NCBI RefSeq assembly: GCF_001017655.1
Contig: NZ_CP010904.1
Coordinates: forward strand, 1,500,001 to 1,532,000
Direction: 5' to 3'
DNA from: Kiritimatiella glycovorans
GTDB lineage: Bacteria; Verrucomicrobiota; Kiritimatiellia; Kiritimatiellales; Kiritimatiellaceae
DNA: 32,000 bases
Shown here: positions 10,101 to 32,000 of the stretch, one piece after another
Position numbering within the stretch: position 1 is the first letter of the stretch
Layout: every line of letters begins with the position of its first letter
Notes under the pieces: generated by a model
What the model saw: only the letters and a program-made list of their open reading frames with translations
What the model was told of the DNA's origin: nothing
The model's database searches: none
Translations under genes and position numbers: made by a program

Positions 10101-11667
10101 ACCAGTAGAGGAGCTGCGGTTTTTCGGACAGCACCGCCAGCGGCTGGTCCGATCCCATCGAGCCGACCGGTTCATGGGCGCTCGAGGCCATGCCCGCGAG
10201 CAGGAGCTGGAGGTCCTCGCGCGTGTAACCGAAGATCTTCTGGCGCTGAAGGATCGTGGCCGCATCCGTCTCGACCGGGGCGACCGCGCCGAAGAACCCG
10301 TGGATCCGGATCTTGTTCTCCTCCACCCAGCGGCGGTAGGGCCGCCGGTGCGCCAAGTGCATCTTGATCTCGAAATCGGTGAGGATCCGCTGTTCGTCGA
10401 GGTCGAGGAGCATCATCTGGCCCGGGCGCAGCGCCCCGCGCTCGGCGACCTCTTCGATCGGGATATCGAGCACGCCCGCCTCCGAGGCGAAGACCACGAA
10501 GCCGTCCTTGGTGACCGTGTACCGCGCGGGACGCAGGCCGTTGCGGTCCAGCGATGCGCCGACGTAGCGTCCGTCGGTGAACGCCACCGCCGCCGGGCCG
10601 TCCCACGGCTCCATCAGCCCGGCGTGATATTCAAAGAAGCCGCGCAGATCCGGGCCGAGCGGGTACTTCTCGCCCCACGCCTGGGGGATCATCATCATGA
10701 GAGCGTGATGGACGTCGCGTCCGCCCTGCGTGAGCAGTTCGACCACGTTGTCGAGGCTCGCCGAATCGCTGCCGCCCTCCTCGATGACCGGAGCGAGTTT
10801 GCGGATATCCCGCCCGAAGAGATCCGACTCGAGGTTGCGTTCGCGCGACCGCATCCAGTTGCGGTTGCCGCGCAGCGTATTGATCTCGCCGTTGTGCGCG
10901 AGGTAGCGGAACGGCTGAGCGAGCGGCCAGGAGGGGAACGTGTTGGTGCTGTACCGCTGGTGGACCACCGCGACCGCACTGGTGAACGCCTCGTCGTTGA
11001 GATCCGCGTAAAACCCGGTGACCTGGCCCGGAAGCATCAGGCCTTTGTAGACGATCGTGCGGGCGGACCAGCTCGGGATGTAAAATCCGTCCTCTTCCGG
11101 CATCCGTTCGGCGACGCGGCGTTCCACCTGCTTGCGCAGGACGTACAGCTTCCGCTCCAGCTCCGCGCCCGTTCGCCCCGCACCGACGGTAAAACACTGC
11201 TCGACCCGGGGAACCTCGCGCCGCCCCAGCTCGCCGAGCACCGAGGCGTCGGTGGGGACCTCGCGCCAGCCCGGACACTCCAGCCCCTCCTCCGCCGTCA
11301 CCTCCTCAATCAGTTCACGGCATAACGCGGCGCGCTCCGCATCCTGCGGCATGAAAATCATCCCGACCCCGTACGCCCCGGCCTCCGGCAGTTCGATGTC
11401 CAGCGCCGACGCCTCGCGCCGGAAAAAGGGGTCGCAGAGCTGTACCAGCACCCCCGCCCCGTCGCCCGTCTCCGGGTCCGCCCCCGTCGCCCCGCGATGC
11501 AGCAGATTCTCCAGTACCTCGATACTCGCCTCGACGATCCGACGCGTCGGCCGGCCGTCCATGTTCGCCACAAACCCCACTCCGCAGTTGTCATGATGAT
11601 GACGCGGATCATAGAGCCCGACCGCCCCGCCCCGCCCCCGAATCATCCCGCTGCCTCCTGCCTTCAT
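7114..11667 (-). CDS. gltB: Glutamate synthase large subunit
   Basis: 1517 aa. N-terminal amidotransferase Cys in NCGVGFVANMDG, FMN/synthase domain (SGEGGEDPARY, ISGYDGGTGASP), and C-terminal GXGXG beta-helix region. ATG at 11667 preceded by GGGAGAG. Confidence 0.95.
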   Translation of the reverse strand: MKAGGSGMIRGRGGAVGLYDPRHHHDNCGVGFVANMDGRPTRRIVEASIEVLENLLHRGATGADPETGDGAGVLVQLCDPFFRREASALDIELPEAGAYGVGMIFMPQDAERAALCRELIEEVTAEEGLECPGWREVPTDASVLGELGRREVPRVEQCFTVGAGRTGAELERKLYVLRKQVERRVAERMPEEDGFYIPSWSARTIVYKGLMLPGQVTGFYADLNDEAFTSAVAVVHQRYSTNTFPSWPLAQPFRYLAHNGEINTLRGNRNWMRSRERNLESDLFGRDIRKLAPVIEEGGSDSASLDNVVELLTQGGRDVHHALMMMIPQAWGEKYPLGPDLRGFFEYHAGLMEPWDGPAAVAFTDGRYVGASLDRNGLRPARYTVTKDGFVVFASEAGVLDIPIEEVAERGALRPGQMMLLDLDEQRILTDFEIKMHLAHRRPYRRWVEENKIRIHGFFGAVAPVETDAATILQRQKIFGYTREDLQLLLAGMASSAHEPVGSMGSDQPLAVLSEKPQLLYWYFKQLFAQVTNPPIDPIREELVMSLMTFIGNPDQILTEVPQHARLVKLDHPILSNEDLERIRSLNLPDFRCVTLPMLFPAGGEGEVLEEAIETLCAHAETSVRAGHRILVLSDRDADADRAPIPALLAVAAVNRHLVERGLRTSISVLVETGEAREVMHMALLLGYGASAINPWLAFESVAQMARRGDLSRDCGVCKALEHYIKANCKGLMKIMSKQGISTLRSYRSAQIFEAVGLNQRVIDRFFTGTPSRIEGIGLDEIAREANERHRAAFAPHPRAANILPAGGQYRYRNDGERHLWTPETISLLQRAARENDPGLYREYARRINDQTEHQSTLRGLFSFRETAPVALEEVEPAAEIARRFVTGAMSFGSISREAHETLAVAMNRLGGMSNSGEGGEDPARYEPLPGGDSRCSAIKQIASGRFGVTAEYLVHARELQIKIAQGAKPGEGGQLPGHKVNGEIARVRHSTPGVTLISPPPHHDIYSIEDIAQLIYDLKNANDEARVSVKLVSEVGVGTVAAGVAKGHADMILISGYDGGTGASPLSSIKHTGMPWELGLAETQQTLVANELRSRVRLQVDGQMKTGRDVVVGALLGAEEFGFATAALIVCGCVMMRKCHNNTCPVGIATQDPELRRRYTGRPEHVVNFLLMVAEEVRELMAQLGFRTMDAMVGRSDLLAMNRAIGFWKARGLDFSQIFYRADAPPEAVRCTIPQDHGLNEAVDYGLLPRIERALERKEPVELDLPVRNTHRTLGTILSSRIARRYGMEGLPDGTVTLRCRGSAGQSFAAFAARGMTFLLEGEANDYLGKGLSGARIIVRPPQGATFMPSEQIIAGNVALYGATCGELYLNGQAGERFAIRNSGARAVVEGIGDHGCEYMTGGRIVVLGPTGVNFGAGMSGGLAYVYDETGMFDDKCNLEMIDLELVEEEEDERELRELIEQHRQYTGSPKAAYILEHWDACRRRFIKVFPMEYRRVLGRMSREDEATEREEVMTR

Positions 11668-17304: not shown

Positions 17305-17372
17305 TTGCGGGGTTGTTCGCCTGTCCGTCTTCCCGGAGAGGCTCCGGATCATCGGGCACCCCGTTTTTTTGC

Positions 17373-17405: not shown

Positions 17406-17537
17406 CTCACGCCCTGGTTCGGCCTGCGCCTCCTGGGCAGGGCGCACCCCACCGCGGTTCACTGAAATCCCGATCACTTTTCATCAAAACGGCGCCAAGG
17501 ACTGGACATTACTAATATAGTATAGTACATATTAGAT

Positions 17538-17819
17538 ATGTGGGAAGTATTTGAACATCGGAACCTGGTCAGAAAGCTTCCGCGCATCCCGGCGGAAATT
17601 TTGAAACGGTACGAAAAATGGAAGGACATCGTGACCATTTCGGGACCCGAGGGCCTTCGCCGGATCGAGGGATTTCATGACGAAGCCCTGCGAGGTGAAT
17701 GGAAAGGACATCGATCGTCGCGGCTCGGCAAACAGTACCGGGTAATTTACAGAATCGAACATCAGCAGTTGCACGTAAAGGTCATTAACATGACAGCCCA
17801 TGATTACCGGAGGAGGTGA
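17538..17819 (+). CDS. higB: HigB/RelE-family toxin (type II toxin-antitoxin)
   Basis: 93 aa ending ...LRGEWKGHRSSRLGKQYRVIYRIEHQQLHVKVINMTAHDY, the HigB-type RelE-fold signature. The toxin-first gene order with an HTH antitoxin is typical of higBA. Confidence 0.75.
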   Translation: MWEVFEHRNLVRKLPRIPAEILKRYEKWKDIVTISGPEGLRRIEGFHDEALRGEWKGHRSSRLGKQYRVIYRIEHQQLHVKVINMTAHDYRRR

Positions 17820-17820
17820 A

Positions 17821-18081
17821 ATGAAGGATTATCGCAAAGCCAGAAAAACCGTGGATGTTTCCGTCGGGGAGTCGGTCCGCATCATGCGGGAATTGCAGGA
17901 ACTCAGCCAGACCGATCTGGCCGAACTTACGGGGATCCCTCAGTCAACCCTGTCGGGGATCGAGAACAATCGGATCAACCTCGGGGTGGAACGCGCTAAG
18001 ACCCTTGCCCGGGCCCTCCGGTGTCACCCGGCCGTGCTGGTCTTTCCCGGATGGGATATCAAAGACCGGCCAGCCGCCTGA
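17821..18081 (+). CDS. higA: HigA-type XRE-family HTH antitoxin
   Basis: ATG 17821 lies 1 nt after the higB stop and is preceded by AGGAGG. The HTH is LSQTDLAELTGIPQSTLSGIENNR. Confidence 0.8.
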   Translation: MKDYRKARKTVDVSVGESVRIMRELQELSQTDLAELTGIPQSTLSGIENNRINLGVERAKTLARALRCHPAVLVFPGWDIKDRPAA

Positions 18082-18454: not shown

Positions 18455-20230
18455 CTACACGCGTTCGCGTTCGACGTAGTGCGTGTGCAGGAGGTGGTGG
18501 GAGCGTTCGCCGAGCGGTTCGCTGAAGTACTCCTCGTAGATTTTGAGGATGTCGGGGTTCTCGTGCGACTTGCGGAGCGTCTTGCTCTCGTCCTCGTCGT
18601 AGATCGCCCGGATGCGCTTTTGGCGCACGGTGTCATCGGTGATACGCGGCTGTCCGCCGCCGCCGATGCAGCCGCCCGGACAGGTCATCACCTCGACGAA
18701 GTGATAGCTCGCTTCGCCGCTGCGGATCTTCTCGACCAGCTTACGCGCGTTGCCGAGCCCGTGCGCGACGGCCACGTTCACTTCCACCCCGTCGAGGAAC
18801 GACCACTCCGCGGTCGGATTTTCGATGGTCACCGCGGCTTCCTTCACGCCGTCGAGACTCTCGATCGGCTTCACGTGCAGGTCCTCGAACGGAAGTTCGC
18901 GGCCGGTGATCACTTCGTACGCCGTGCGCAGTGCGGCTTCCATGACGCCGCCGGTGTTGGCGAAGATATCCGCCGCCCCGGAACCGGTACCCAGCGGCGT
19001 ATCCATCTCGCCGTCGGGCAGCGAGTCGAAATCGAGTCCGGCCTGCTGGATCATCCGCCCCAGCTCGCGCGTGGTCAGCACGACATCCACGTCCTGCGTG
19101 CCGCTGTCGTTCATCTCCGGGCGCCCGGCCTCGTACTTCTTGGCCGTGCAGGGCATGATCGAGACGCTGACGATATCCTCGGGCCGTTTCCCGATCTTTT
19201 CGGCGTAATACGTCTTGATGACCGCCCCCATCATCTGCTGCGGCGACTTGCACGTCGAGACGTTGGGCAGCATATCCGGGTAGAAGTATTCCATGAACTT
19301 GATCCAGCCCGGCGAGCAGCTCGTGAACTGCGGCAGCGCGACATCCGGTTCGCCGTCGACCAGCGCCTTCTTCAGGCGGCTGAGCAGCTCGTGCCCTTCC
19401 TCCATGATCGTCAGGTCCGCGGTGAATTCCGTATCGAAGACGGCATCGAAGCCCATCTGCCGGAGCGCGGTGGTCATTTTGCCCGTGACCCGGGTTCCGG
19501 GTTCGTAGTCGAAGCATTCCCCGAGCGCCGCGCGGATCGCCGGGGCGGTCTGGACGACCACGGTCTTTTCCGGATCGTCGAGCGCGGCCCAGACCTCGTC
19601 CGTCTGATCGCGCTCCGAGATCGCGCCCACGGGACAGACCGCCGCACACTGGCCGCACTGGACGCAGGTCACGGTGTCGAGATCCTGGGCGAACGCGGGT
19701 CCGATGGTGGTATGGAATCCACGCCCCTGGGGAAACAGGGCCGAGATGCCCTGCACTTCGTTGCAGATGGTCACGCAGCGGCGGCACATGATGCACTTGG
19801 CCGAATCGCGGACGAGTCCGGGCGTGCTGTGGTCCTGGCCGCGCAGCGCCTTTTCACCCGTGTACTGCAGTTCGCGGATGCCGAGGTCGCGGGCGAGGGT
19901 CTGCAGCTCACAGTCCTCGTTCCGGTCGCAGGTCTGGCAGTCGCCCTCGTGCTCGGAGAGCAGCAGTTCCACAACCGTGCGGCGCGCCTCCCGGACGCGA
20001 CGGTTATTGGTGAAGATCTTCATGCCGTCTTTGACGTGCGTCACGCAGGAGGCGACGAGATCCTTGATGCCTTCGATCTCCACCAGGCAGACGCGGCAGG
20101 CGCCGATCGCCTGCACGTTCTCCAGATAGCAGAGCGTGGGGATCTTCAGCCCGACGGACTGCGCGGCGTTCAGGATCGTCGTGCCTTCCGGCACCTCCAC
20201 AGCTTGATCGTTAATCCAGCATTTCGGCAT
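18455..20230 (-). CDS. hydA: [FeFe]-hydrogenase-type catalytic subunit (HydA-like, M3 architecture), cluster 1
   Basis: 591 aa. N-terminal 2Fe-2S ferredoxin domain, His-ligated 4Fe-4S region (SEHEGDCQTCDRNEDC), two 4Fe-4S motifs (CIMCRRCVTIC, CVQCGQCAAVCP). H-domain motifs are FTSCSPGW (atypical), MPCTAKKYE and EVMTCPGGCIGGGGQP. ATG 20230 follows GGAGG. Confidence 0.9.
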   Translation of the reverse strand: MPKCWINDQAVEVPEGTTILNAAQSVGLKIPTLCYLENVQAIGACRVCLVEIEGIKDLVASCVTHVKDGMKIFTNNRRVREARRTVVELLLSEHEGDCQTCDRNEDCELQTLARDLGIRELQYTGEKALRGQDHSTPGLVRDSAKCIMCRRCVTICNEVQGISALFPQGRGFHTTIGPAFAQDLDTVTCVQCGQCAAVCPVGAISERDQTDEVWAALDDPEKTVVVQTAPAIRAALGECFDYEPGTRVTGKMTTALRQMGFDAVFDTEFTADLTIMEEGHELLSRLKKALVDGEPDVALPQFTSCSPGWIKFMEYFYPDMLPNVSTCKSPQQMMGAVIKTYYAEKIGKRPEDIVSVSIMPCTAKKYEAGRPEMNDSGTQDVDVVLTTRELGRMIQQAGLDFDSLPDGEMDTPLGTGSGAADIFANTGGVMEAALRTAYEVITGRELPFEDLHVKPIESLDGVKEAAVTIENPTAEWSFLDGVEVNVAVAHGLGNARKLVEKIRSGEASYHFVEVMTCPGGCIGGGGQPRITDDTVRQKRIRAIYDEDESKTLRKSHENPDILKIYEEYFSEPLGERSHHLLHTHYVERERV

Positions 20231-20275
20231 GTCGGCCTCCGTCGGGGTTCCGGTGTTCTGTTCTGGGTGCCGGGC

Positions 20276-20301
20276 GGCGCGCTCGGAGATCGCGCCCTAC
20301 C
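20276..20301 (-). repeat. REP-like element (GTAG head + hairpin)
   Basis: Minus strand: GGTAG-GGCGCG-atctccgag-CGCGCC. Shares the 16-mer GAGATCGCGCCCTACC (plus strand) with 29788-29803. Confidence 0.6.
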
Positions 20302-20352
20302 TTTCTGCGGCGCGCCCGGGTCTCGTACCCTGTCCGCAACTCTCTCTAATTC

Positions 20353-20379
20353 TTACTCAGGTTTCAGGTCTCAGCCTTC
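20353..20379 (-). repeat. 27-bp heptad-periodic element, copy A (22 nt after the stop of the NuoF::GltD fusion gene)
   Basis: Minus strand GAAGGCTGAGACCTGAAACCTGAGTAA, identical to the plus strand of 28363-28389. Confidence 0.8.
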
Positions 20380-20400
20380 TCACTCGATCACATCCCCCGC

Positions 20401-23400
20401 TCACCACGTATGCTGTTTCTCCCGGTAATCGCAGCGCAGGCAGCGGCGCGCCTGGCGGCGGGCGACCGGTTCGGTCCACGGCTGTTCGACTTCGTCGAAG
20501 TTGTTCCGCCGCCGTTCGACGGGGATCAGCGGGATGGGTTCGCGATCGTCCGGGATCGGGTCGGCGTCCGGATCGAACTCCGTATCGTTATCGACCTCTT
20601 CGCGCCAGAAGGCGTGGTTCTTGCCGGTGAGCATCGTATCGATACCAACCGCGGCCTTTTCGCCCGCGGCCACGGCTTCGACCACGGATGCCGGGCCGGT
20701 GGCGGCATCGCCGCCGGCGAAGATCCACTCCTCCGAGGTCTGGCCGGTGACCGGATTGATCCGGAGGTAGCCCTTCGACTGGAGTGCGACGTCCTGCCCG
20801 TCCAGCACGGCGCCGGCATCGAGCTTCTGGCCGATCGCGGCGATCACCTGGTCGGCGGGGATCACGAAGGTCTCGTCGGAGGCCTCCGGGCGGCGGCGGC
20901 CGGAGCGGTCGAACGCGCCGAGCGTCATCCGCTTGCAGCGCACGCCGCTGACGGCCCCGTCCTTCAATTCGATCTCGACCGGATTGGTGAGCATCTGCAG
21001 GTGGACGCCCTCGTTCTCCGCCTCTTCGATTTCCTCGGTGTAGGCGGGCATCTGTTCGCGGGTGCGGCGATAGACCACGGTCACGGTCTCCGCGCCGAGG
21101 CGGACGGCCGTCCGGGCGGCATCGACCGCCGCGTTCCCGCCGCCGATGATCACCACGTTCCGGCCGGCGGGGGCCGAGCCGCGGATATTGTACTCGCGCA
21201 GGAAGCGGATCGCCTCCGTCACCTGCGGGGCGTCCTCGCCGGGGATACCGAGCGCGACCCCGTCCGGGGCGCCCATGCTCAGGAAGACCGCGTCGTACCC
21301 CTGCTCGCGCAGGCCGTTGAGCGTGACGTCCTCGCCCAGCTTCGTATTGCACTGGATATCCACGCCCATGCGCTCGATCATGCGCACCTCGCGGGCGAGG
21401 CATTCGCGCGGCAGGCGATACTCGGGGATCGTCTGGACCATCATCCCGCCCGGCCGCGCCTCGGCCTCGAACACCTTCGGCCGATAGCCGAGGCGGGCGA
21501 GGAAGTAGGCGCAGGAGAGGCCGGCCGGCCCGGCGCCGATAACGGCGATCCTGCGCGCCGCGTTCTTCTGGTTCTCCCGCACCTCGGGGACCTGGATGAT
21601 CATTTCCTGTTCGACCATGAACCGCTTCACCGCGCGGATCGAGACGGAGTCGTCGAGGCTCGCGCGGCGGCAGTGGTCTTCGCAGGTATGGAAGCACACC
21701 CGCGCACAGGCCGAGGCGAACGGGTTGCGCTCACGGTGGAGCAGCAGCGCGTCGGCATAGCGTCCTTCGGCCACGCGCGAGACGAAGCCGGGCACGTCCA
21801 CGTTCGCCGGGCAGGCGCTCTGACAGGGCGCGCGCACGAGTTCCGGGCAGACCCCCGCTTCGCACTTATGGTCGCGGATATGGGCGATGTACTCATCGCG
21901 GAAATGCCTCAGCGTGGAGAGCACCGGATTCGCGGCCGTTTTGCCGAGCCCGCAGAGCGCCGACTCCTTGATCTGGTTGCCCAGTTTCTCGAGGCGGTCG
22001 AGGTCCTCCATCTTCCCTTCGCCGCGGCAGATCCCCTCGAGGATCTCCAGCATGCGTTTCGTACCCACGCGGCAGGGAACGCATTTGCCGCACGATTCCT
22101 CCTGCACGAATTCCAGAAAATAGCGGGCCACATCCACCATGCAGCTCTCGTCGTCCATCACGATCAGGCCGCCCGAGCCCATGATCGCGCCGAGTTCCAC
22201 GAGCGACTCGTAGTCCAGCGGGACATTCAGGTGTTCGCGCGGGATACAGCCGCCCGAGGGGCCGCCGAGCTGCGCGGCCTTGAACGGCTTACCGTCGGCC
22301 ACGCCGCCGCCGACGTCGTAGATCAGTTCCCCCAGCGGGATGCCGATCGGCACCTCGACCAGCCCCGTGTTGTTCACCGCTCCGGCCAGCGCGAAGACCT
22401 TCGTGCCGCGGCTCTTTTCGGTGCCCAGCTCCGCGAACCATTCCGGCCCCTTCTGCGCGATGATCGGGACGTTGGCGAAGGTTTCGACGTTATTGAGCAG
22501 CGTCGGCTTATCCCAGAGGCCCTTCTGGGCCGGGAACGGCGGGCGCGGGCGCGGCTCGCCCCGCTTGCCTTCGATCGACGCCAGAAGCGAGGTCTCCTCG
22601 CCGCAGACGAACGCGCCGGATCCCATGCGGATCTCGATATCGAAAGAGAAATCGCTCCCGAAGAGATGCTCTCCGAGCAGACCGCCGTTGCGGGCCTGGT
22701 CGAGCGCCCGGCTCATGCGCTCGACGGCCACCGGGTACTCGGCGCGACAGTAGACGTAGCCGCGGGAGGCCCCGATCGCGAAGCCCGCCAGCGTCATGCC
22801 CTCGATCACCGCATGGGGGTCGCCCTCGAGGATGCTGCGATCCATGAACGCGCCCGGGTCGCCTTCGTCCGCGTTGCAGACGACGCTCTTGGGCGTCTCG
22901 CTCGACTGCCGCGTCAGCTTCCACTTCAGGCCGGTGGGGAAGCCGCCTCCCCCGCGTCCCCGCAGGCCGGACTGCTCCACGTAATCGACCAGCGTATCGG
23001 GATCGAGTTCGGTAAGCGCGCGCGCCAGGCCGCGGTAGCCGTCGGCGGCGATGTAGTCGTCGATCTCGTGCGGATCGACGATGCCGCAGTTGCGGAGCAC
23101 CAGCTTGTGCTGCTTGCGAAAATAATCGATGCGGTCCATTTCGGGGACCGGCTTCCCGGTACCGCCCTCGCGGTAGAGCAGGCGCGTGACCACCTCGCCC
23201 CGGACGATATGCGTGGCGATGATCTCCTCGGCGTCTTCGGGATTGAGCTTCTGGTAGAACACCCCGTCGGGCATGACCTTGGCCACCGGTCCGGCCGCGC
23301 AGGGCCCCATGCAGCCGGTCCGGATGATCCGGACCTTCTCCTGCACGCCGTGCCGTTCCACGGCCTCTTCGAGCGCCCTGCAGATCTCGAGCGCCCCGGA

Positions 23401-23553
23401 GGCCAGGCAGCCGCCCCCCACGCAGACGAGCACCTGGATCGGGCTTCCGCCGTGAATCTTTTCTTCCTCTCCGCCGCGCCGGAGCCCCAGGGCGGGACCG
23501 CGCTCGCGCTTCACTGCTTCAAGGTCGTCGATAGTCCGGATCGTTCTCATCAC
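20401..23553 (-). CDS. Fusion protein: thioredoxin-like [2Fe-2S] domain + NuoF-like flavoprotein (HydB type) + GltD/NfnB-like NAD(P)H oxidoreductase module
   Basis: 1050 aa with VCVGGGCLASG...GCMGPCAAGP; GRGGGGFPTGLKW and SCGKCVPCRVG (NuoF FMN/N3 region); then CQSACPANVDVPGF, IAVIGAGPAGLSCAY and VVIIGGGNAAVDAA (GltD-like). GTG 23553 or ATG 23550 overlaps the upstream stop. Confidence 0.9.
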   Translation of the reverse strand: MMRTIRTIDDLEAVKRERGPALGLRRGGEEEKIHGGSPIQVLVCVGGGCLASGALEICRALEEAVERHGVQEKVRIIRTGCMGPCAAGPVAKVMPDGVFYQKLNPEDAEEIIATHIVRGEVVTRLLYREGGTGKPVPEMDRIDYFRKQHKLVLRNCGIVDPHEIDDYIAADGYRGLARALTELDPDTLVDYVEQSGLRGRGGGGFPTGLKWKLTRQSSETPKSVVCNADEGDPGAFMDRSILEGDPHAVIEGMTLAGFAIGASRGYVYCRAEYPVAVERMSRALDQARNGGLLGEHLFGSDFSFDIEIRMGSGAFVCGEETSLLASIEGKRGEPRPRPPFPAQKGLWDKPTLLNNVETFANVPIIAQKGPEWFAELGTEKSRGTKVFALAGAVNNTGLVEVPIGIPLGELIYDVGGGVADGKPFKAAQLGGPSGGCIPREHLNVPLDYESLVELGAIMGSGGLIVMDDESCMVDVARYFLEFVQEESCGKCVPCRVGTKRMLEILEGICRGEGKMEDLDRLEKLGNQIKESALCGLGKTAANPVLSTLRHFRDEYIAHIRDHKCEAGVCPELVRAPCQSACPANVDVPGFVSRVAEGRYADALLLHRERNPFASACARVCFHTCEDHCRRASLDDSVSIRAVKRFMVEQEMIIQVPEVRENQKNAARRIAVIGAGPAGLSCAYFLARLGYRPKVFEAEARPGGMMVQTIPEYRLPRECLAREVRMIERMGVDIQCNTKLGEDVTLNGLREQGYDAVFLSMGAPDGVALGIPGEDAPQVTEAIRFLREYNIRGSAPAGRNVVIIGGGNAAVDAARTAVRLGAETVTVVYRRTREQMPAYTEEIEEAENEGVHLQMLTNPVEIELKDGAVSGVRCKRMTLGAFDRSGRRRPEASDETFVIPADQVIAAIGQKLDAGAVLDGQDVALQSKGYLRINPVTGQTSEEWIFAGGDAATGPASVVEAVAAGEKAAVGIDTMLTGKNHAFWREEVDNDTEFDPDADPIPDDREPIPLIPVERRRNNFDEVEQPWTEPVARRQARRCLRCDYREKQHTW

Positions 23554-24074
23554 TGGGATTCCTCCGACTTACGGTACGGGTCGAGCATCTGACGGACGCG
23601 GGCCGGCTTCACGCGCTGGTGCACGTCGTCGTCGATCATCACCGCCGGGGCGAGCCCGCAGGCCCCGAAACAGCGCGCGATCTCCAGCGTGAACTGTCGA
23701 TTCTCCGTGGTCTCGCCCACCTCCACGCCCAGCTCCTTCTTGAGCGCCTCCAGCACCTGCTTTCCCCCGCGGACGTAGCAGGCCGTGCCCAGGCAGACGC
23801 GGATCACATGCTCGCCGCGCGGCTGGGTGGAAAAATAGGAGTAGAACCCGATGACACCCGCGACCTCGCTGTACGGCCGGTCCAGCCCGCGGCTCACGCG
23901 CTTGATGACGTCCTCGGGAAGATAGCCGAACAACTCCTGCGCCTGCTGCAGAACCGGAATCAGCCCCCCGGGCACCGATCGATACCGGTCGAGCAGTTCG
24001 TCCAGCTCCGCAAAATGCTCCGCGGAACATTCCCCACCGCAACATGTGTTTTCTTCAATCCCGGAACAAATCAT
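23550..24074 (-). CDS. hydC: NuoE-like [2Fe-2S] subunit (HydC type), cluster 1, with Cys-rich N-terminus
   Basis: ORF 23550..24086, whose first codon is TTG. Start set to ATG 24074 (MICSGIEENTCCGGECS), 5 nt after GGAGG. Cluster motifs CLGTACYVRGG and CFGACGLAP are present. Confidence 0.85.
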   Translation of the reverse strand: MICSGIEENTCCGGECSAEHFAELDELLDRYRSVPGGLIPVLQQAQELFGYLPEDVIKRVSRGLDRPYSEVAGVIGFYSYFSTQPRGEHVIRVCLGTACYVRGGKQVLEALKKELGVEVGETTENRQFTLEIARCFGACGLAPAVMIDDDVHQRVKPARVRQMLDPYRKSEESQ

Positions 24075-24324
24075 AGGAGCCTCCAAATAACATCATTCAC
24101 AAAACATAAAAACTTCCTGATCTGCAAATTTTGATATTAAAAACACATCTTACGGTAACAGACAACATAATTAAGACAATAGGGGTTTTTTATTTTAAAC
24201 TATTTGGCCGCAATAAGTTATGTCTTTTTCTTCTCGCCCGCGCGCCCGAAAACGTTACAATTCGGCGAAATATTCTACTGAGCGGCTGATTGTTCGACCT
24301 CAGCGGCGTTTTAAGGAGGAGCGG
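24075..24324. promoter_or_regulatory. AT-rich divergent intergenic control region between the two hydrogenase clusters
   Basis: A 250-bp, conspicuously AT-rich spacer in an otherwise GC-rich window, lying between two divergent start codons. No convincing -24/-12 element was found by eye. Confidence 0.5.
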
Positions 24325-24708: not shown

Positions 24709-25230
24709 ATGCTCAGGTCCGAACAGGAACAATTGCGCAAGAATATCGAGCAGTGGGTGGAGCAGTACGGCCGCGACCGCAGTGCGCTGCTCCCCGTGCT
24801 GAAGAAGGTGCAGCATGATTACGGGCACATCTCCGAATACGTGATGCAGGTGATCGCGGACATCCTGGACATCCACCCGGTCGAGGTGCACGGGGTGGTG
24901 TCCTTCTACAGTTTTCTCGGCCAGCGCCAGAAGGGGCGCTATGTGATCCGCCTCTGCCGCACGATCTCGTGCGACATGCAGGGCAAGGACCGCGTCGCCC
25001 GGCAGCTCCGCAACGATCTGGGCATCGAGTTCGGCGAGATGACCCCGGACGGCCACTTCACGCTGGAGTGGGCGAACTGCCTGGGGATGTGCGACGAGGG
25101 TCCCGCGATGCTGGTGAACGACCGCATCTACACCCGCGTCACGCCGGAGCGGATCCACGACATTCTCGAGGAGTGCCGCAAATCGTTCGGCGTCTATCCC
25201 ACCCCTATGAAGGAGGCGGAACCGGCATGA
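24709..25230 (+). CDS. hydC: NuoE-like [2Fe-2S] subunit (HydC type), cluster 2
   Basis: 173 aa with LCRTISCDMQG and CLGMCDEGP. ATG 24709 lies 8 nt after GAAGGAGG. Confidence 0.85.
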   Translation: MLRSEQEQLRKNIEQWVEQYGRDRSALLPVLKKVQHDYGHISEYVMQVIADILDIHPVEVHGVVSFYSFLGQRQKGRYVIRLCRTISCDMQGKDRVARQLRNDLGIEFGEMTPDGHFTLEWANCLGMCDEGPAMLVNDRIYTRVTPERIHDILEECRKSFGVYPTPMKEAEPA

Positions 25231-26429
25231 AGGCGAATCCCAACAAACTGACGTTTGCATCGATCGAGACGAATCGGGGGCTGGAGGCGGCGCTGGGCGG
25301 CGAGCGTGCGGACGCGATCGGACGCGTATCCCATTCGGGGCTCAAGGGGCGCGGCGGCGCCGGCTTCCCCACGGGCGTCAAATGGAACCTGGCCGCGGCG
25401 GCGCAGAGCGATCAGAAGTACGTGGTCTGCAATGCGGACGAAGGCGAACCGGGTACGTTCAAGGACCGCGCGATTCTCACCGACTACGCGGACCTGGTAT
25501 TCGAGGGCATGACGATCGGGGGCTACGCGATCGGGGCCACCAGAGGGATTCTGTACCTGCGCGAGGAATACACCTACCTGCGGCGGCGGCTCGAAAGCGT
25601 GCTCGCGCGCCGGCGGAAAGAGGGCTGGCTCGGCGAGGGCATCGGCAAGCGCGGGGATTTTCACTTCGACATCGAGATCCGGATGGGCGCCGGGGCCTAC
25701 ATCTGCGGCGAGGAGACCGCGCTGATCGAGTCGCTGGAGGGCTACCGCGGCGAGGCGCGCAACCGCCCGCCCTTCCCCGTCGACACGGGCTTCAAAAACC
25801 ACCCGACCATCGTCAACAACGTGGAGACCTTCGCCTGGATCTCGTGCATCTTCGTCAAGGGCGAGGACTGGTTCAAGAAGCTCGGCACGGAGAAGTCGAG
25901 CGGTCTGAAGCTGCTCAGCGTCTCCGGCGACTGCGCGCAGCCGGGCGTCTACGAGGTGCCGCTGGGCGTGACCGTGGCCGATCTGCTCGAGCTGGTAGGA
26001 GGCGAGGACGCGAAGGCGGTGCAGATCGGGGGCGCCTCCGGAAACTGCATCCCCGCCTCGGAATTCGAGCGGACCATCGCCTTTGAAGACGTGCCCACCG
26101 GGGGATCCATCATCGTCTTCGGCCCCGGGCGGGACATGCTGACCGTCGCCAAGAACTTCATGGAGTTCTTTGTCGACGAATCCTGCGGCCAGTGCACGCC
26201 CTGCCGCGAGGGCAACGTGAAACTGCTCGAAGGCATCGAGATGCTCGAACAGGGCACCTGCTCGATGCACTACCTCCGCGAGCTGTGCGCGCTGGGCGAG
26301 ACGATGCAGCTCGCCTCGAAGTGCGGACTGGGGCAGTCGAGCCCCAATGCGTTCCTCTCGATCGTCGAACACTTCAAGGATGAAATCATGGGGCGCCGGC
26401 CCGAAGCCGCCGCCGTGCAAGGAGCGTAA
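25227..26429 (+). CDS. hydB: Minimal NuoF-like flavoprotein subunit (HydB type) without accessory ferredoxin domains, cluster 2
   Basis: Part of ORF 24969..26429. ATG 25227 (MKANPNKLTF) overlaps the hydC2 stop as ATGA. Contains GRGGAGFPTGVKW and SCGQCTPCREG...KCGLGQ. The protein ends about 30 aa after the last N3 cluster Cys. Confidence 0.85.
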   Translation: MKANPNKLTFASIETNRGLEAALGGERADAIGRVSHSGLKGRGGAGFPTGVKWNLAAAAQSDQKYVVCNADEGEPGTFKDRAILTDYADLVFEGMTIGGYAIGATRGILYLREEYTYLRRRLESVLARRRKEGWLGEGIGKRGDFHFDIEIRMGAGAYICGEETALIESLEGYRGEARNRPPFPVDTGFKNHPTIVNNVETFAWISCIFVKGEDWFKKLGTEKSSGLKLLSVSGDCAQPGVYEVPLGVTVADLLELVGGEDAKAVQIGGASGNCIPASEFERTIAFEDVPTGGSIIVFGPGRDMLTVAKNFMEFFVDESCGQCTPCREGNVKLLEGIEMLEQGTCSMHYLRELCALGETMQLASKCGLGQSSPNAFLSIVEHFKDEIMGRRPEAAAVQGA

Positions 26430-26432: not shown

Positions 26433-28358
26433 ATGGACAAGAAGATGGCCGAAGAAACGTCGCGCGCGCCCCGCAGCCAGTGTCTGGACCGGATCGAACA
26501 GCCGGACAATCCCGACGCGATCGGGGCCCAGGTCACGATCACGGTCGACGACCAGGAGATCAAGGTGCCGCTGGGCACCACGATCCTGGAAGCCGCCCGC
26601 GAACTGGGCATCCGCATCCCCACCCTCTGCTACCACGAGGACCTGTGCGTCGCCGGCGTCTGCCGGGTCTGCGTGGTGGAGGTCGAGGAGGAGCGCACCC
26701 TGCAGGCGTCCTGCTCCTACCCGGTCACCCGCCCGATCACGGTGCGGACCCATACGCGCAAGGTGCGGCAGGCGCGGCGACATATCCTCGACCTGCTGCT
26801 CTCCCGGCACTACGGCGAATGCTACGCCTGCTTCCGCAACAACAACTGCGAGCTGCAGGCGCTCGCCAAGGAGTACGGGGTCGATTTCTTCCGCTTCGGC
26901 CACCCGGAAAAACCGCGCTACGAGGTCGACCGCTCCAGCCACTCGGTCGTCCGCGACATGGACAAGTGCATCCTCTGCCGCCGCTGCGTACGTACCTGCA
27001 TCGACCTGCAGGAAACCGGTGTGCTCGAGGTGGCCGGGCGCAGCTTCGAGTCAAAAGTGGTCACGTTCGGCGACAAGCCGCTGGCCGAGGTCGTCTGCAT
27101 CAACTGCGGCCAGTGCATCAACCGCTGCCCCACCGGCGCGCTGCGCGCCAACGACCCGACCGACGAGGTCTGGGCGGCGATCGACGACCCGACCAAACAC
27201 GTCGTCATCCAGACGGCGCCGAGCCCGCGGGCGGGGATCGGCGAGTGCTTCGGACTCGAACCGGGGCACTGCCTGACGTTCGAGATGAATACGGCGCTGC
27301 GGATGTGCGGGTTCGACAAGGTGTTCGACACGAACTTCACCGCGGACCTGACCATCCTGGAAGAGGGCACGGAGCTTATCCGGAGGCTCTACGGGGCGCT
27401 GGTCGAGCAGGATGAGAACGTCGCCCTGCCCCAGTTCACGAGCTGCTCGCCGGGCTGGGTCAAGTATATTGAACACTTCTACCCGGAGTACCTGGACCAC
27501 GTCTCGACCGCAAAGAGCCCGCAGCAGATGTTCGGCTCGGTGATCAAGACCTACTACGCGCAAAAGGCGGGGATCGATCCCGAGAACATCGTGACGGTGG
27601 CGCTGATGCCCTGCGCGGCGAAAAAGTTCGAGTGCAACCGTCCGGAGATGTGCGACAGCGGGCACAAAGACATCGATTACGGCCTGACGACGCGCGAACT
27701 GGCGCAGATGATCAGCGAGACGGGCATCCACCTCCCGGGCGTGCCGAAGTCGGATTTCGACGATCCCTTCGGTACGGCCACGGGGTCCGGCGTGATCTTC
27801 GGCGCCACCGGCGGCGTAATGGAATCGGCGCTGCGCACCATCATCGAGGTGACGACCGGCGTGAAGGTGGAGGACCTGTTCGAACACGCCGACATCACCC
27901 CCATCCGCGGGTTCGAGGGCATCCGCTTCATGGAACTCCCGATCGAGAAGACCGGACCGGTGCCGGAACTGCTGCAGAATGTCGTTCAGGACTGGTCCTG
28001 GCTTGAGGGCGCCACGCTCAAAGTGGCGGTGGCCCACGGCACGGCCCACGCGAAACGGGTCATGGAGGACATCAAGGCGGGAGGACCCTGCAGCCAATGC
28101 CATTTCATCGAGTTCATGGCCTGCCCCGGCGGCTGCCTGGGCGGCGGCGGACAGCCGATCCCGACCAGTCCGGAGATCCGCGAGGCCCGCGCGCAGGCGA
28201 TCTACGCGGAGGACTCCGACGCCGAGGTCCGGAAATCCTACGAGAATCCGGCGGTGGCGGAACTCTACCGGAACTTCTTCACCGACGGCCCCTGCAGCCA
28301 CCTGAGCCATCAGCTGCTGCATACCCACTACACGCCGAGAGGAAAGTATATCGTGTGA
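26433..28358 (+). CDS. hydA: [FeFe]-hydrogenase-type catalytic subunit (HydA-like), cluster 2
   Basis: 641 aa. Same domain order as cluster 1 HydA, plus a ~40-aa N-terminal extension. Motifs are FTSCSPGW (atypical), MPCAAKKFE and EFMACPGGCLGGGGQP. Confidence 0.9.
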   Translation: MDKKMAEETSRAPRSQCLDRIEQPDNPDAIGAQVTITVDDQEIKVPLGTTILEAARELGIRIPTLCYHEDLCVAGVCRVCVVEVEEERTLQASCSYPVTRPITVRTHTRKVRQARRHILDLLLSRHYGECYACFRNNNCELQALAKEYGVDFFRFGHPEKPRYEVDRSSHSVVRDMDKCILCRRCVRTCIDLQETGVLEVAGRSFESKVVTFGDKPLAEVVCINCGQCINRCPTGALRANDPTDEVWAAIDDPTKHVVIQTAPSPRAGIGECFGLEPGHCLTFEMNTALRMCGFDKVFDTNFTADLTILEEGTELIRRLYGALVEQDENVALPQFTSCSPGWVKYIEHFYPEYLDHVSTAKSPQQMFGSVIKTYYAQKAGIDPENIVTVALMPCAAKKFECNRPEMCDSGHKDIDYGLTTRELAQMISETGIHLPGVPKSDFDDPFGTATGSGVIFGATGGVMESALRTIIEVTTGVKVEDLFEHADITPIRGFEGIRFMELPIEKTGPVPELLQNVVQDWSWLEGATLKVAVAHGTAHAKRVMEDIKAGGPCSQCHFIEFMACPGGCLGGGGQPIPTSPEIREARAQAIYAEDSDAEVRKSYENPAVAELYRNFFTDGPCSHLSHQLLHTHYTPRGKYIV

Positions 28359-28471: not shown

Positions 28472-29752
28472 ATGCCCCGAAACCTCCAGTACCTCGATGA
28501 GCGCGGCGACGGGAAACCGTGGTCTTTCTTCACATCGGAGGAGCAGGCGCGGCTGGCGGAGATGAACCAGAAGATCGCCGGCGCGCGGTCCATACACGAG
28601 GTGATGGACCGCTTCTTTCAGACGGCCCGCGAACTCGGCGCTACCGACCGGGCCGGGCTGGCCTTCGTCGAAGAGGACGCCCGCCGCGTCACCGCGCGCT
28701 ACGCCCGGGCGAACTACGAGCCCCTGCTGCTGCGCGAAGGCTACTCCGAAGACCTCCACGGCAGCTCGCTCGAACACGTCCTCCAGCGCGGCCGCCCGCG
28801 GGTGATCAGCGATCTCGAACTCTACCTCGAACACCACCCCTTCAGCCGCTCCACCGAACTCGTCGTCCGGGAAGGCGTCCGCTCAAGCCTGACCTGCCCG
28901 CTGACCGTCGACGACCGCGTGGTCGGCTTTCTCTTTCAGAGCAGCCGTAAACGCTATGCCTACGGGGAACGGGATGTGGCCATGGTACGCGTCATCGCCG
29001 AACGGCTCAGCCAGGCCGTCGAGAAGGCGTGGCGGATCGCGCAGCTCGAATCGCTCAACCGCGCCTACACCGAGATGCTCGGCTTCGTGAGCCACGAGCT
29101 GAAAAACCCCGTCGCCTCGCTCGTCACCGACGCCCGGCTGCTGACCGGCGGCTATCTCGGCGAGCTGCAGCCGAAGCAGAAGGACAAGCTCGAAAGGATG
29201 ATCTCCAAGGCGGAGTACCTGCTCGGACTCGTGCGCCAGTATCTGGACCTCGAGCGCATCGAGTCGGGCAGCCTGGAACCCAACAGGGTCACGATCCGCG
29301 ACGTCCGTGCCGCCGTCGTCGAACCGGCGATCGATATCGTCCTGCCGCAGGTCGAGGAAAAGCGCATGACGATTGAGCGCGAGCTGCCTGATGCGCCGCC
29401 TGAAGTCGAAGGCGACGCCGGGCTGATCAAGATCGTGCTCGTCAACCTCCTGAGCAACGCCGTCAAATACGGCCGCGAGGGCGGCCGTATCCGCATGAGC
29501 GTGCGCGAGGAGAACGAGGCCCTGCGTTTCACGGTCTGGAACGAGGGCCCCGGGTTTCCCGAATCGGCGCGCGGACGCCTCTTCCGCCGCTTCTCGCGGC
29601 TCAACACCCCCGAACTGATGCGGCAGAAAGGGACCGGCGTCGGCCTCTACAACGCGCGCAAGATCGTCCTGCTCCACGGCGGCCACATCAACGCCCGTTC
29701 CGAAGAGGGCTCCTGGGCGGAATTCTCCTTCACCCTTCCCCGGCGCGCTTAG
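28472..29752 (+). CDS. Cytoplasmic sensor histidine kinase with N-terminal GAF domain
   Basis: 426 aa with a GAF-like region (aa ~40-190), H-box FVSHELKNP, N-box LLSNAVKYG and G-box GTGVGL. No hydrophobic transmembrane stretch is visible. The start codon has no clear SD, so the start is uncertain. Confidence 0.85.
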   Translation: MPRNLQYLDERGDGKPWSFFTSEEQARLAEMNQKIAGARSIHEVMDRFFQTARELGATDRAGLAFVEEDARRVTARYARANYEPLLLREGYSEDLHGSSLEHVLQRGRPRVISDLELYLEHHPFSRSTELVVREGVRSSLTCPLTVDDRVVGFLFQSSRKRYAYGERDVAMVRVIAERLSQAVEKAWRIAQLESLNRAYTEMLGFVSHELKNPVASLVTDARLLTGGYLGELQPKQKDKLERMISKAEYLLGLVRQYLDLERIESGSLEPNRVTIRDVRAAVVEPAIDIVLPQVEEKRMTIERELPDAPPEVEGDAGLIKIVLVNLLSNAVKYGREGGRIRMSVREENEALRFTVWNEGPGFPESARGRLFRRFSRLNTPELMRQKGTGVGLYNARKIVLLHGGHINARSEEGSWAEFSFTLPRRA

Positions 29753-30439: not shown

Positions 30440-31144
30440 TCATCCGCCCCCCCCTCGCACCACCACCTCATGCACGAACTCGGTCACGGTGGAACGGAGC
30501 TCTTCGAGCTGTTCGGGCGGGGTGCGCGGGAGCGTGCGAAAGGTCTCGCCGGGAAGGGACTCGTCGGGAACGAACGGCTGCAGCACGAGACGGTTCGAGC
30601 CGTTCAGTTCGATCCCGATCCGCCGCATCCGGTCCGCATTGTGGTGGCCGGGGATCACGGTGGTGCGGAATTCATGGCGGACGCCGCCGCTCCTGAGCAG
30701 TTCGACGGACCGTCGCAGACGATCGGGCCGCGACCAGCCGGTGAGGGAGGGGTAGTCCTCGAGCGCCGTCTTCACATCCATCGCCACGTAGTCCAGATCC
30801 GGAAGACAGGCCTCCAGCATTTCCGGGTTCGAGCCGTTGGTGTCGAGTTTGACGGCGAACCCGTGCCGTTTATAGAAGCGGATCAGTTCGGGAAGCCCCG
30901 CGGCGAGCGTCGGCTCGCCGCCGCTGATGACGGCCGCATCGGTCCAGTTGCGCCGGAAATCGGCGCAGACCTCGTCCATCCGCTCCCAGCTCAGGCCCGG
31001 CCGGGGCGCTCCCATCAGCGTGGCATTGTGGCAGAAACCGCAGGAGAAATTGCAGCCGCTGGTGAAGAAGATCGCCGCGATCCGGCCGGGATAATCCACC
31101 ATGGTAGGCTGGCGGCGGAAGGCATAGACCGGCGAAGCCGCCAT
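30440..31144 (-). CDS. nrdG: Anaerobic ribonucleoside-triphosphate reductase activating protein (radical SAM)
   Basis: 234 aa with FTSGCNFSCGFCHN (CxxxCxxC) and ISGGEPT. Downstream of nrdD. Confidence 0.85.
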   Translation of the reverse strand: MAASPVYAFRRQPTMVDYPGRIAAIFFTSGCNFSCGFCHNATLMGAPRPGLSWERMDEVCADFRRNWTDAAVISGGEPTLAAGLPELIRFYKRHGFAVKLDTNGSNPEMLEACLPDLDYVAMDVKTALEDYPSLTGWSRPDRLRRSVELLRSGGVRHEFRTTVIPGHHNADRMRRIGIELNGSNRLVLQPFVPDESLPGETFRTLPRTPPEQLEELRSTVTEFVHEVVVRGGGG

Positions 31145-31561: not shown

Positions 31562-32000
31562 TCAGTTCTGCCGGATTTCCGCGCCGGCTTGCGGCGAAGG
31601 CTCCTCCGCGCACTCCATGGCGTCGTCCTCCGCCGTCTCCACAGCGTACTGCCCGCGCTGCCGGGCCACCAGTTCGCCGTAGCGCTTGGACTTGTTCCAG
31701 TTCTGGATCTTGCTGAAGTAGCCCACGACGCGCGTTTCGCCGACCACGTCCTCCGAGCCGCAGGACTCGCAGCTCTCCTTCAGACCGCGCATATTGTGGC
31801 GGCAGTAGTTGCAGTAGGTGAACTCGGGCGAGATCGTGACCTGCGCCGACTGCGTCTCAAAGAACACCTTCTTCATGAGCGCGGCGACCGATTCCGGCGC
31901 CGGGCGCTCCTCGCCGACGAACGCGTGGGTGATCGCCCCCGATTCGATCAGGCTGTGGTACTTGCTCTGTTCGCGGATGCGGTCCACCAGCGTGACCGGC
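31562..32000 (-). CDS. nrdD: Anaerobic ribonucleoside-triphosphate reductase, C-terminal part (5' end off window)
   Basis: C-terminal Zn-ribbon CNYCRH...CESCGS and glycyl-radical motif TRVVGYFSKIQNWNKSKRYGE. The frame is open to the right edge. Confidence 0.85.
   Translation of the reverse strand, partial: PVTLVDRIREQSKYHSLIESGAITHAFVGEERPAPESVAALMKKVFFETQSAQVTISPEFTYCNYCRHNMRGLKESCESCGSEDVVGETRVVGYFSKIQNWNKSKRYGELVARQRGQYAVETAEDDAMECAEEPSPQAGAEIRQN

Follow-up and report, generated by a model that had tools for sequence, protein, structure and literature searches.

Which electron carriers exchange electrons with hydrogen in a trimeric [FeFe]-hydrogenase whose flavoprotein subunit is fused to a GltD-type module? 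The question is raised by a 32-kb stretch of the genome of Kiritimatiella glycovorans L21-Fru-AB (hereafter the window, to whose first letter all coordinates refer unless another locus is named), assigned to this strain by exact protein matches to a single 2,949,723-bp record (AKJ64550-64552, and AKJ64556.1 for HydA2 of the second operon). The window has a GC content of 64.3% and contains two divergent trimeric [FeFe]-hydrogenase operons with an AT-rich region between them. The operon studied here lies on the minus strand in the order C-B-A and consists of hydC/bfuC (nuoE1, NuoE-like; 23550..24074, 174 residues from ATG, AKJ64552.1), a hydB::gltD fusion encoding a BfuB with an NADP(H)/FAD arm (20401..23550, 1049 residues from ATG, AKJ64551.1) and hydA1 for the M3-type [FeFe]-hydrogenase catalytic subunit (18455..20230, 591 residues, AKJ64550.1). 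Read from the GTG at 23553, from which we number its residues, the fusion open reading frame (20401..23553) has 1050 codons for amino acids, whereas the deposited protein begins at the ATG at 23550; nuoE1 and the fusion gene overlap by 1-4 nt (GTGATG).

A first-pass annotation of this DNA, made from the letters and the open reading frames, had described three co-directional minus-strand genes forming an StnABC-like module, in which the HydA-like subunit keeps most H-cluster motifs and which could be an NADP(H)-coupled, possibly bifurcating hydrogenase and not a pure transhydrogenase, or else an intermediate form. The open reading frames lie exactly at the limits it gave and all the peptide strings that it quoted are present in the translations. 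Our analysis indicates that the locus is an ordinary member of a genome-defined hydrogenase sub-type and not a variant of Stn. On balance, we favour the reading that it encodes a cytoplasmic HydABC/Bfu trimer of the type known as sub-type I BfuABC, in which FMN would be the site where H2 is coupled to NAD(H) and FAD the site of its coupling to NADP(H), NADPH taking the place of ferredoxin on the low-potential branch.

The catalytic subunit and its H-cluster site

Against the NCBIfam model NF040763 ('NADH-dependent [FeFe] hydrogenase, group A6'), whose cut-off is 765, HydA1 reaches 895.6 bits, and its nearest solved relatives are HydA1 of A. woodii (7q4v_A, E 5e-190) and the catalytic subunit of T. 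kivui (E 3e-182). It comprises an N-terminal [2Fe-2S] domain, a His-ligated [4Fe-4S] cluster (H94...C107), two [4Fe-4S] clusters and the H-domain. The three H-cluster motifs were located on the minus strand as P1, TSCSPGW (T303-W309; 19304..19324), which aligns without gaps to CpI and to A. woodii HydA1, P2, MPCTAKKYE (359-367, with C361; 19130..19156), and P3, EVMTCPGGCIGGGGQP (513-528, with C517 and C521; 18647..18694). P2 and P3 are canonical and P1 reads TSCSPGW, not TSCCPxW, and in this form the earlier statement that most H-cluster motifs are kept is borne out. In the gapless HMMER alignment C305 matches CpI C299, the proton relay, and S306 sits at the position of C300, a ligand of [4Fe-4S]H in CpI. 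The P1 motif of A. woodii HydA1 is identical, and there the Ser-for-Cys exchange at the H-cluster cubane ligand was reported to have 'no apparent influence' on the H-cluster signature and activity (Katsyv et al. 2023, PMC10021017).

The equivalents of the CpI proton-path residues C299, E279, E282, R286 and S319 are conserved in an alignment to 4xdc_A, namely as C305, as the E277/E281/R285 equivalents in MEEGHELLSRL and as the Ser of VSTCKSPQQ, and in the M353/M497/K358 environment, likewise conserved, the two methionines are the Met of MPC and of EVM. The alignment to CpI leaves P2, P3 and the proton path intact and places a Ser at one P1 ligand position. Judged by these alignments, HydA1 is a genuine group-A hydrogenase whose H-cluster site is complete in the A. 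woodii manner; since every H-cluster ligand position is filled, the missing ligands that would mark a plain Stn-type transhydrogenase were not found here.

The motif TSCSP is present in 32 of the 37 HydA genes that adjoin fused and canonical HydB in the fetched loci, and HydA2 likewise carries it. A Ser-ligated H-cluster cubane appears to be the norm of this clade and not a peculiarity of A. woodii.

A BfuB flavoprotein fused to a GltD-type arm

The first-pass annotation had divided the 1050-residue protein into a thioredoxin-like [2Fe-2S] domain, a NuoF core and a GltD-like module, and the Pfam and NCBIfam calls agree with this division, giving a thioredoxin-like 2Fe-2S domain (39-113), Complex1_51K, SLBB, NADH_4Fe-4S (to 558), Fer4_20 (562-651) and Pyr_redox_2 (668-964). 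The thioredoxin-like domain extends over residues 39-125 (23179..23439, minus strand; PF01257 at 39-113) with C44, C49, C81 and C85, and the NuoF core over residues 159-559 (21877..23079, minus strand; TIGR01959, 487 bits), with the FMN/NAD(H) site GRGGGGFPTG (199-208) and CGEE (317-320), an SLBB domain and the N3-type [4Fe-4S] ligands C488, C491, C494 and C534. Over their whole length, the first 576 residues can be aligned with BfuB of A. mobile (7t2r_B, E 7e-231) and HydB of A. woodii (7q4v_B, E 2e-226), to which the NuoF core is 57-63% identical, and the alignment ends at chain residue 543 of ~600.

At the end of this half lies a His/Cys motif, H558-x5-C564-x4-C569 (21847..21882, minus strand), that we mapped residue by residue onto 7t2r_B. 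The residues that PMC9304861 lists as B2 [2Fe-2S] ligands in BfuB of A. mobile, C438, C476, H525, C531 and C536, correspond in this mapping to C471, C509, H558, C564 and C569 of the fusion. The His of the motif is reported to occur in virtually all bifurcating BfuB proteins and to be missing from non-bifurcating HydB (Schut et al., PMC9304861), and the structures from A. woodii and T. kivui were interpreted with a Zn2+ hinge site in the same loop (Katsyv et al., PMC10021017). Under either reading, B2 or Zn, the motif is a hallmark of the family and it is kept in the fusion. Indeed, the cysteines of the N-terminal 2Fe-2S domain, those of N3, the FMN/NAD(H) motifs GRGGGGFPTG and CGEE and all five B2 ligands are invariant in family alignments of 14 and of 64 sequences.

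The fusion lacks the C-terminal 2x[4Fe-4S] domain of HydB (B3/B4), the proposed ferredoxin site, and no CxxCxxCxxxCP motifs are present. The last His/Cys ligand is separated by 8 residues from the next Cys motif, CQSACP of the GltD module, as against the 13 residues that precede CxxCxxCxxxCP in canonical HydB of the fetched loci. As far as can be told from its sequence, none of the marks of a bifurcating BfuB is missing from the flavoprotein before the end of the His/Cys (B2/Zn) motif. A neighbour-joining tree of the NuoF core was too weakly resolved to show whether the fusion arose once.

In the position of B3/B4 stands a GltD-type domain for two [4Fe-4S] clusters (Fer4_20, PF14691; residues 562-651, 21601..21870, minus strand) with C577, C581, C616, C620, C624 and C628 and with a lysine, K643. 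It is followed by the FAD and NADP(H) Rossmann domains (PF07992; residues 668-978, 20620..21552, minus strand), whose motifs are VIGAGPAG (671-678, the FAD GxGxxG), YRLP with Arg713, and GGGNAAVDAAR...VVYRRTREQMPA (802-837). The C-terminal RCLRC (C1038, C1041; 20431..20445, minus strand) is invariant in 58 of 58 full-length fusions and is homologous to the CxxC at ~562-565 of StnC and in 9bov_A; it supplies the last two of eight invariant cysteines in the GltD module, which are thus enough for two [4Fe-4S] clusters.

When residues 558-1050 alone were searched against the PDB, the matches to 9bov_A (386 bits), StnC (8oh5_C, 362 bits) and NfnA (9n5u_A, 340 bits) were stronger than those to NfnB of T. 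maritima (284 bits), NfnL (248 bits) and true GltD (~180 bits). The motif GGGN(T/A)A...YRR(T/S)..EMPA is common to the arm, StnC and NfnA in the alignment, and StnC oxidises NADPH (PMC7483475). K643 aligns with K170 of StnC, a strictly conserved residue that ligates the FAD-proximal cluster and is a Glu in the self-bifurcating NfnB (PMC10482914), and C616 of the arm aligns with Ile143 of StnC. By these features, K643, the NADPH motif, the C-terminal CxxC and the top PDB matches, the arm is classed as Stn-type. The analogy with StnC supports a role of its FAD as a simple entry or exit point for NADPH, not as a second bifurcation site.

Structure prediction agrees with the domain assignment. In an AlphaFold2 model computed from the 64-sequence alignment the domains fold with a mean predicted local distance difference test score of 76.8, and Foldseek re-identified the two halves, retrieving HydB/BfuB chains over the N-terminal part and NfnA, StnC and NfnL over the C-terminal part; a solved chain that spans both was not among the matches of this search.

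The remaining subunit, NuoE1 (PF01257, E 2e-48), carries the [2Fe-2S] ligands C94, C99, C135 and C139 and has BfuC of A. mobile (7t2r_C) and HydC of T. kivui (8a6t_C) as its best PDB matches. Its Cys-rich N-terminal tag, MICSGIEENTCCGGEC (residues 1-20; C3, C11, C12 and C16), had been listed as an oddity that is absent from its paralogue. The tag is real and NuoE2 indeed lacks it, as do HydC of A. woodii and BfuC of A. mobile, but it is not odd: the N-terminus of T. kivui HydC (8a6t_C) has 'NCCCKGS' in the aligned positions, most HydA-linked NuoE/HydC relatives keep a CxC/CC motif with an acidic stretch behind it, and the tag is a family feature. We also considered that the CxC of NuoE and the CxxC of the fusion form a site between the subunits and rejected this, since fusions whose NuoE has no tag carry RCLRC unchanged, and since this motif has its homologue in StnC, where it is a cluster-ligand motif.

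Relation to known enzymes and distribution

Zheng & Huang (2024, mSystems, PMC11406978) defined a 'sub-type I BfuABC' from genomes and without biochemistry. In this sub-type B3/B4 is replaced by a DPD_II domain (two [4Fe-4S] clusters) and a C-terminal FAD/NAD(P) domain, BfuA is of the M3a type, the fifth position of P1 often being a Ser, there is no BfuD and the gene order is C-B-A; its carriers include Kiritimatiellota, Verrucomicrobiota, Planctomycetota and Spirochaetota, among others (PMC11406978). The present locus (group A3) matches the sub-type on every point and shows no structural difference from it. To this description our alignments add that the B2 ligands are all kept and that the arm is Stn-type (K643, RCLRC); we further find that the pair of NuoE and NuoF::GltD also serves partners resembling selenocysteine (Sec) FdhA or small Fe-S proteins, and that the system is present in a cultured strain. 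No biochemically characterised NuoF::GltD hydrogenase was found in the literature searched.

The subunit architecture of Stn, which the first-pass annotation had claimed for the locus, is a different one. StnC of StnABC, a 1172-residue NuoG/FdhF-like protein that has no H-domain, carries the GltD domain as an insertion (residues 102-565), and StnB is HydB-like with a C-terminal ferredoxin domain (PMC7483475, PMC10482914). StnABC of Sporomusa ovata (8oh5) and NfnABC of C. saccharolyticus (9bov) and T. sibiricus (9n5u) also combine a BfuBC-like core with a GltD-type NADPH/FAD module, but there the module is part of the third, NuoG/FdhF-like subunit (~950-1180 residues) and feeds the mid-potential path, whereas here it is fused behind the BfuB His/Cys motif. 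StnB keeps B3/B4 for ferredoxin and the fusion is without it; likewise, StnABC and NfnABC have no H-domain and no H2 chemistry, whereas the third subunit here is a true HydA of 591 residues. An intermediate between Stn and a hydrogenase is not what these differences describe, the architectures being distinct and HydA1 being a real HydA. The suggestion that an NADP(H)-coupled and possibly bifurcating hydrogenase should be preferred to a pure transhydrogenase is the better reading, in view of the real HydA site and the NADPH-type motif in the arm.

With the bifurcating HydABC enzymes of A. woodii (7q4v), T. kivui (8a6t) and T. maritima (7p5h) the locus shares the features of HydA1, of the HydC-like subunit and of the HydB core, but their HydB ends in a ferredoxin-like 2x[4Fe-4S] domain in place of which the fusion has a GltD/FAD/NADPH module of ~480 residues. 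The non-bifurcating NADH-dependent enzymes, Hyd1ABC of S. wolfei and HydAB of S. aciditrophicus, lack B3/B4 as the fusion does; they also lack the His/Cys motif and the N-terminal 2Fe-2S domain, whereas the fusion keeps both and adds the NADPH arm. NfnAB/NfnSL (T. maritima 4ylf, P. furiosus 5jca) shares the GltD fold and its equipment of two [4Fe-4S] clusters, FAD and NADPH (284 and 248 bits; TMt 0.76-0.80), but NfnB has a Glu at the proximal-cluster position and needs NfnA for its high-potential branch, and no NfnA homologue is encoded in the window. A link to HydDB group A2 had been drawn as well. In A2 a GltD-like NAD(P)H flavoprotein is also associated with a group A HydA, but the group excludes a NuoF neighbour: by the HydDB rule a GltD neighbour without NuoF gives A2 and a NuoF-containing neighbour gives A3 (PMC5037454), and the present locus, whose neighbour contains NuoF, is assigned to A3.

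Over 120 database clusters contain the fusion, with identities of 65-76% and a coverage of ~100%, and come from Kiritimatiellales, Pontiella, Lentisphaerae, Planctomycetota/Phycisphaerae and Hydrogenedentes. In a scan of GTDB species genomes, for which our counts cover the best 80 loci, full-length fusions were found in 58 (41-75% identity), distributed over many bacterial phyla, a metagenome-assembled genome (MAG) of Promethearchaeota (Loki) and another archaeal MAG. The possibility that the 1050-residue open reading frame had been joined artefactually, raised earlier, is ruled out by these numbers of full-length copies, and the window proteins match a single K. glycovorans record.

A full HydA follows the fusion directly in 24 of the 58, with TSCSPGW as P1 in 22 and TSCCPGW in 2. 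The remaining fusions are followed by other genes (in our loci L025 and L037, and also L019, L038, L046 and L053), some of which encode Sec-type formate-dehydrogenase-like proteins whose open reading frames end in '...NNVDHCARL*', the stop being a probable in-frame Sec TGA, and others small NuoG-N-terminal-like Fe-S proteins of 226-251 residues, one of them in the Loki archaeon MAG. Given this variety of partner genes, NuoE and NuoF::GltD are a portable module shared among catalytic partners and not a one-off fusion. The closest relative listed (L003/L004, 76% identity) has the same divergent two-operon layout. Maturase genes lie downstream of hydA, within 10 kb, in three relatives (L012, 19072-21579; L014, 7388-12562; L060, 16755-23127), with hydE and hydG in all three and hydF in L014 and L060, each scoring above the cut-off of its NCBIfam equivalog.

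The second operon of the window runs on the plus strand and contains nuoE2 (24709..25230), nuoF2 (25227..26429, 400 residues) and hydA2 (26433..28358, 641 residues, AKJ64556.1), bracketed by a receiver-only response regulator (24220/24326-24705, plus strand) and a GAF-HisKA-HATPase kinase (28472..29752, plus strand). HydA2 is 50% identical to HydA1 and its P1 is also TSCSPGW. NuoF2 has none of the five B2 ligands and neither B3/B4 nor an N-terminal 2Fe-2S domain. By these predicted features the second operon is of the non-bifurcating type and fits the 'sub-type II' BfuABC, which is without B3, B4 and B5 (PMC11406978). Neither hydrogenase at this locus carries a ferredoxin-docking domain.

Predicted reaction and competing explanations

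In the mechanism that we propose, electrons would pass between the H-cluster, the Fe-S chain of HydA, the N3-type cluster and FMN, where NAD(H) would react. The branch that serves ferredoxin in other members would be rerouted from the region of FMN, the His/Cys motif and the BfuC cluster to the two clusters of the GltD arm, and from there through FAD to NADP(H), the FAD acting as a plain converter between two-electron and one-electron steps as in StnC, and not as a second bifurcation site. The predicted reaction is NADH + NADPH + 2H+ <-> 2 H2 + NAD+ + NADP+, with NADPH as the low-potential partner. The physiological E' of NADPH is about -380 mV. That of NADH is about -280 mV and E°' of H+/H2 is -414 mV (PMC9304861). 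By our own calculation a 1:1 mixture of NADH and NADPH averages about -330 mV, corresponding to ~150 Pa H2 at equilibrium, against ~3 Pa for NADH alone. The latter value agrees with the 2.2-40 Pa H2 measured with a non-bifurcating NADH hydrogenase (PMC7311640).

Spring et al. (PMC5148204) reported that Rnf is present in K. glycovorans and that the headspace gas is 'most likely hydrogen'. In this organism reduced ferredoxin could be converted to NADH through Rnf, and H2 would leave through the armed enzyme and the adjacent NADH hydrogenase of the non-bifurcating type. The published view of two bifurcating hydrogenases in the H2 metabolism of K. glycovorans is probably wrong in detail, because neither of the adjacent enzymes has a ferredoxin-docking domain.

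As to the enzyme class, we suggest more tentatively a ferredoxin-independent confurcating hydrogenase, in which NADPH, entering through an Stn-type FAD arm, may serve as the low-potential partner of the Bfu FMN/Fe-S site. If true, the reaction would be of a type that no hydrogenase has so far been shown to catalyse, and a new mode of coupling both for hydrogenases and for the Bfu family; fermenters that use Rnf could evolve H2 at a ~50-fold higher pressure than from NADH alone, and the module of NuoE and NuoF::GltD would play the corresponding part for Sec-formate dehydrogenases. The usual annotation of trimeric [FeFe]-hydrogenases is ferredoxin/NADH-bifurcating, and metabolic models start from it. 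The NuoF::GltD design is common, and with K. glycovorans being a cultured type strain the replacement of ferredoxin is directly testable.

Several observations weigh against the coupling of H2 to NADH and NADPH as we propose it. Its stoichiometry, its direction and the use of NADPH are all drawn by homology, and the nucleotide preference of an FMN site is not readable from sequence. HydABC of A. woodii uses NAD+ and that of T. kivui NADP+. Ferredoxin could still find another docking place, such as the distal cluster of the GltD arm (the NfnB case) or the N-terminal clusters of HydA (the CpI case). The AlphaFold2 model of the fusion has a predicted template-modelling score of 0.55 and gives no confident inter-domain geometry, and the wiring between the GltD arm and the His/Cys motif rests on the length of the linker. 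Zheng & Huang considered that the FAD might be a second bifurcation centre (PMC11406978). Finally, none of the maturase genes hydE, hydF and hydG lies within the 32-kb window, and in a similarity search with a planctomycete HydG as the query K. glycovorans was not among the best 120 matches.

Docking of ferredoxin at either of these places, the surface-exposed distal [4Fe-4S] cluster of the GltD arm or the N-terminal clusters of HydA, would make the complex a ferredoxin-dependent bifurcating hydrogenase, with FAD/NADPH as a third entry or as a second bifurcating centre, that links H2, ferredoxin and both NAD(H) and NADP(H) as a hydrogenase with a built-in Nfn-like transhydrogenase. We consider this unlikely. 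In its favour, Spring et al. (2016, PMC5148204) called both K. glycovorans hydrogenases bifurcating, the His/Cys motif, the N-terminal 2Fe-2S domain and the BfuC cluster are all kept, the GltD fold can bifurcate by itself in NfnAB (PMC10482914), the arm has the full set of eight Cys, unlike StnC, and two possible bifurcation centres were proposed by Zheng & Huang (PMC11406978). B3/B4, for which binding of ferredoxin was shown or proposed in HydABC, Stn and NfnABC, is nevertheless missing; the arm is of the Stn type, with Lys at the K170 position and not the Glu of bifurcating NfnB, and there is no NfnA-like gene or domain to accept the high-potential electron from FAD. A little less probable still is a non-bifurcating hydrogenase with two independent entries, where NADH at FMN or NADPH at FAD would reduce protons alone, at low H2 and without coupling. 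Non-bifurcating NADH-dependent HydABC and HydAB enzymes without B3/B4 do exist (PMC7311640; PMC11406978), and the fusion is likewise without this domain. It has kept, however, two features that non-bifurcating HydB is reported to lack and that are absent from NuoF2, namely the His/Cys motif and the N-terminal 2Fe-2S domain, and the invariance of these features across 64 homologues argues for their use.

The two remaining explanations seem to us very improbable. An Stn-type transhydrogenase (NADH + reduced ferredoxin : NADP+), with the HydA-like subunit as an electron-transfer scaffold, would suit the fact that the GltD arm and the BfuBC core are nearest in sequence to the parts of Stn and NfnABC, and would be in keeping with a window free of hydEFG; it is opposed by the H-cluster ligand positions of HydA1, which are filled as in the active A. 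woodii enzyme, and by its proton path, by StnC having no H-domain, by the location of GltD in a different subunit and the loss here of the B3/B4 of StnB, and by the maturase genes that flank fusion-type operons in three relatives. Equally far-fetched, despite the suggestion of such a role for A2 enzymes in the HydDB table (PMC5037454), is a glutamate-synthase-linked hydrogenase whose GltD-like arm would dock on GltB to direct electrons from H2 to glutamate synthesis. Ammonium is the sole nitrogen source used by K. glycovorans, and a gltB gene is found on the same strand ~7 kb downstream, yet this gltB has its own canonical gltD directly downstream, and a sigma-54 activator, two toxin-antitoxin pairs and a broken transposase lie between it and hydA1; GltB is near the fusion in 0 of 84 related loci (within 10 kb), and the arm is much nearer to the GltD domains of Stn and Nfn than to true GltD.

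Non-coding features and neighbouring genes

The fusion gene and hydA1 are separated by a spacer of exactly 170 bp (20231..20400, minus strand), as the first-pass annotation had noted, but its description as repeat-filled was overstated, the spacer holding a single direct repeat of 25 nt, imperfect (76%), together with short palindromes. Neither is a gap of this size out of place in an operon of this type: the corresponding spacers in relatives usually measure up to ~75 bp, with small overlaps in some, and reach 141 and 499 bp in two. The RNA fold of the spacer was no better than that of shuffled sequences (z +1.03), an Rfam scan of the whole window gave no family, and no promoter-like or terminator-like site was found on the coding (minus) strand of the spacer, where one terminator-like match occurred on the plus strand and the total number of matches was at chance level.

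Within the spacer lies one copy of a 27-nt exact repeat, GAAGGCTGAGACCTGAAACCTGAGTAA, at 20353-20379 (minus strand), and the other is at 28363-28389 (plus strand). The copies lie 21 nt past the fusion stop and 5 nt past the hydA2 stop and are oriented alike with respect to their transcripts; 0 exact matches of 27 nt are expected by chance. For the copy after hydA2, an inverted and imperfect counterpart allows pairing (-33.7 kcal/mol, z -1.67). A recombination scar, a dispersed repeat and a common 3' signal are possible explanations of the repeat. We rejected the spacer as a mobile or repeated element, as the 3' flank of hydA2 is the only exact 27-nt match in 32 kb and none was found in 84 related loci.

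The region between nuoE1 and the second operon (24087..24219; 27.8% GC) is presumed to be the promoter region for both divergent operons; a promoter scan and a search with the sigma-54 consensus detected neither a sigma-70 nor a sigma-54 consensus in it.

Downstream of hydA1, on the minus strand, gltB (7114..11667, 1517 residues) encodes a canonical glutamate synthase large subunit ~7 kb away and is followed immediately by a canonical gltD (5549..7003, 484 residues). With GltB within 10 kb of the fusion in none of the 84 related loci, the closeness of gltBD to hydA1 is best treated as a coincidence. Between gltB and hydA1 we located a sigma-54 activator (GAF + AAA; 11754-13364, plus strand), an AbiEii toxin with its upstream partner (an AbiE toxin-antitoxin pair; 13643-15075, minus strand), a Mutator-family transposase split into two open reading frames (15218-16084 and 16151-16954, minus strand) and a RelE-like frame of 93 residues overlapping an HTH_3 antitoxin-like frame (17538-18081, plus strand); the interval 11754-18081 is a patch rich in mobile and defence elements.

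Near the start of the window, on the minus strand, are a fusion of a PabB-like chorismate-binding domain with an aminotransferase class IV domain (1004-2887, 627 residues) and a protein of 734 residues (3260-5464) whose sole recognisable part is a C-terminal GreA/GreB module. At its other end, also on the minus strand, lies a fragment of an anaerobic ribonucleotide reductase gene (NrdD; 31562..31987), and the radical-SAM gene at 30440..31144, next to this NrdD-type gene, probably encodes its NrdG-type activase.

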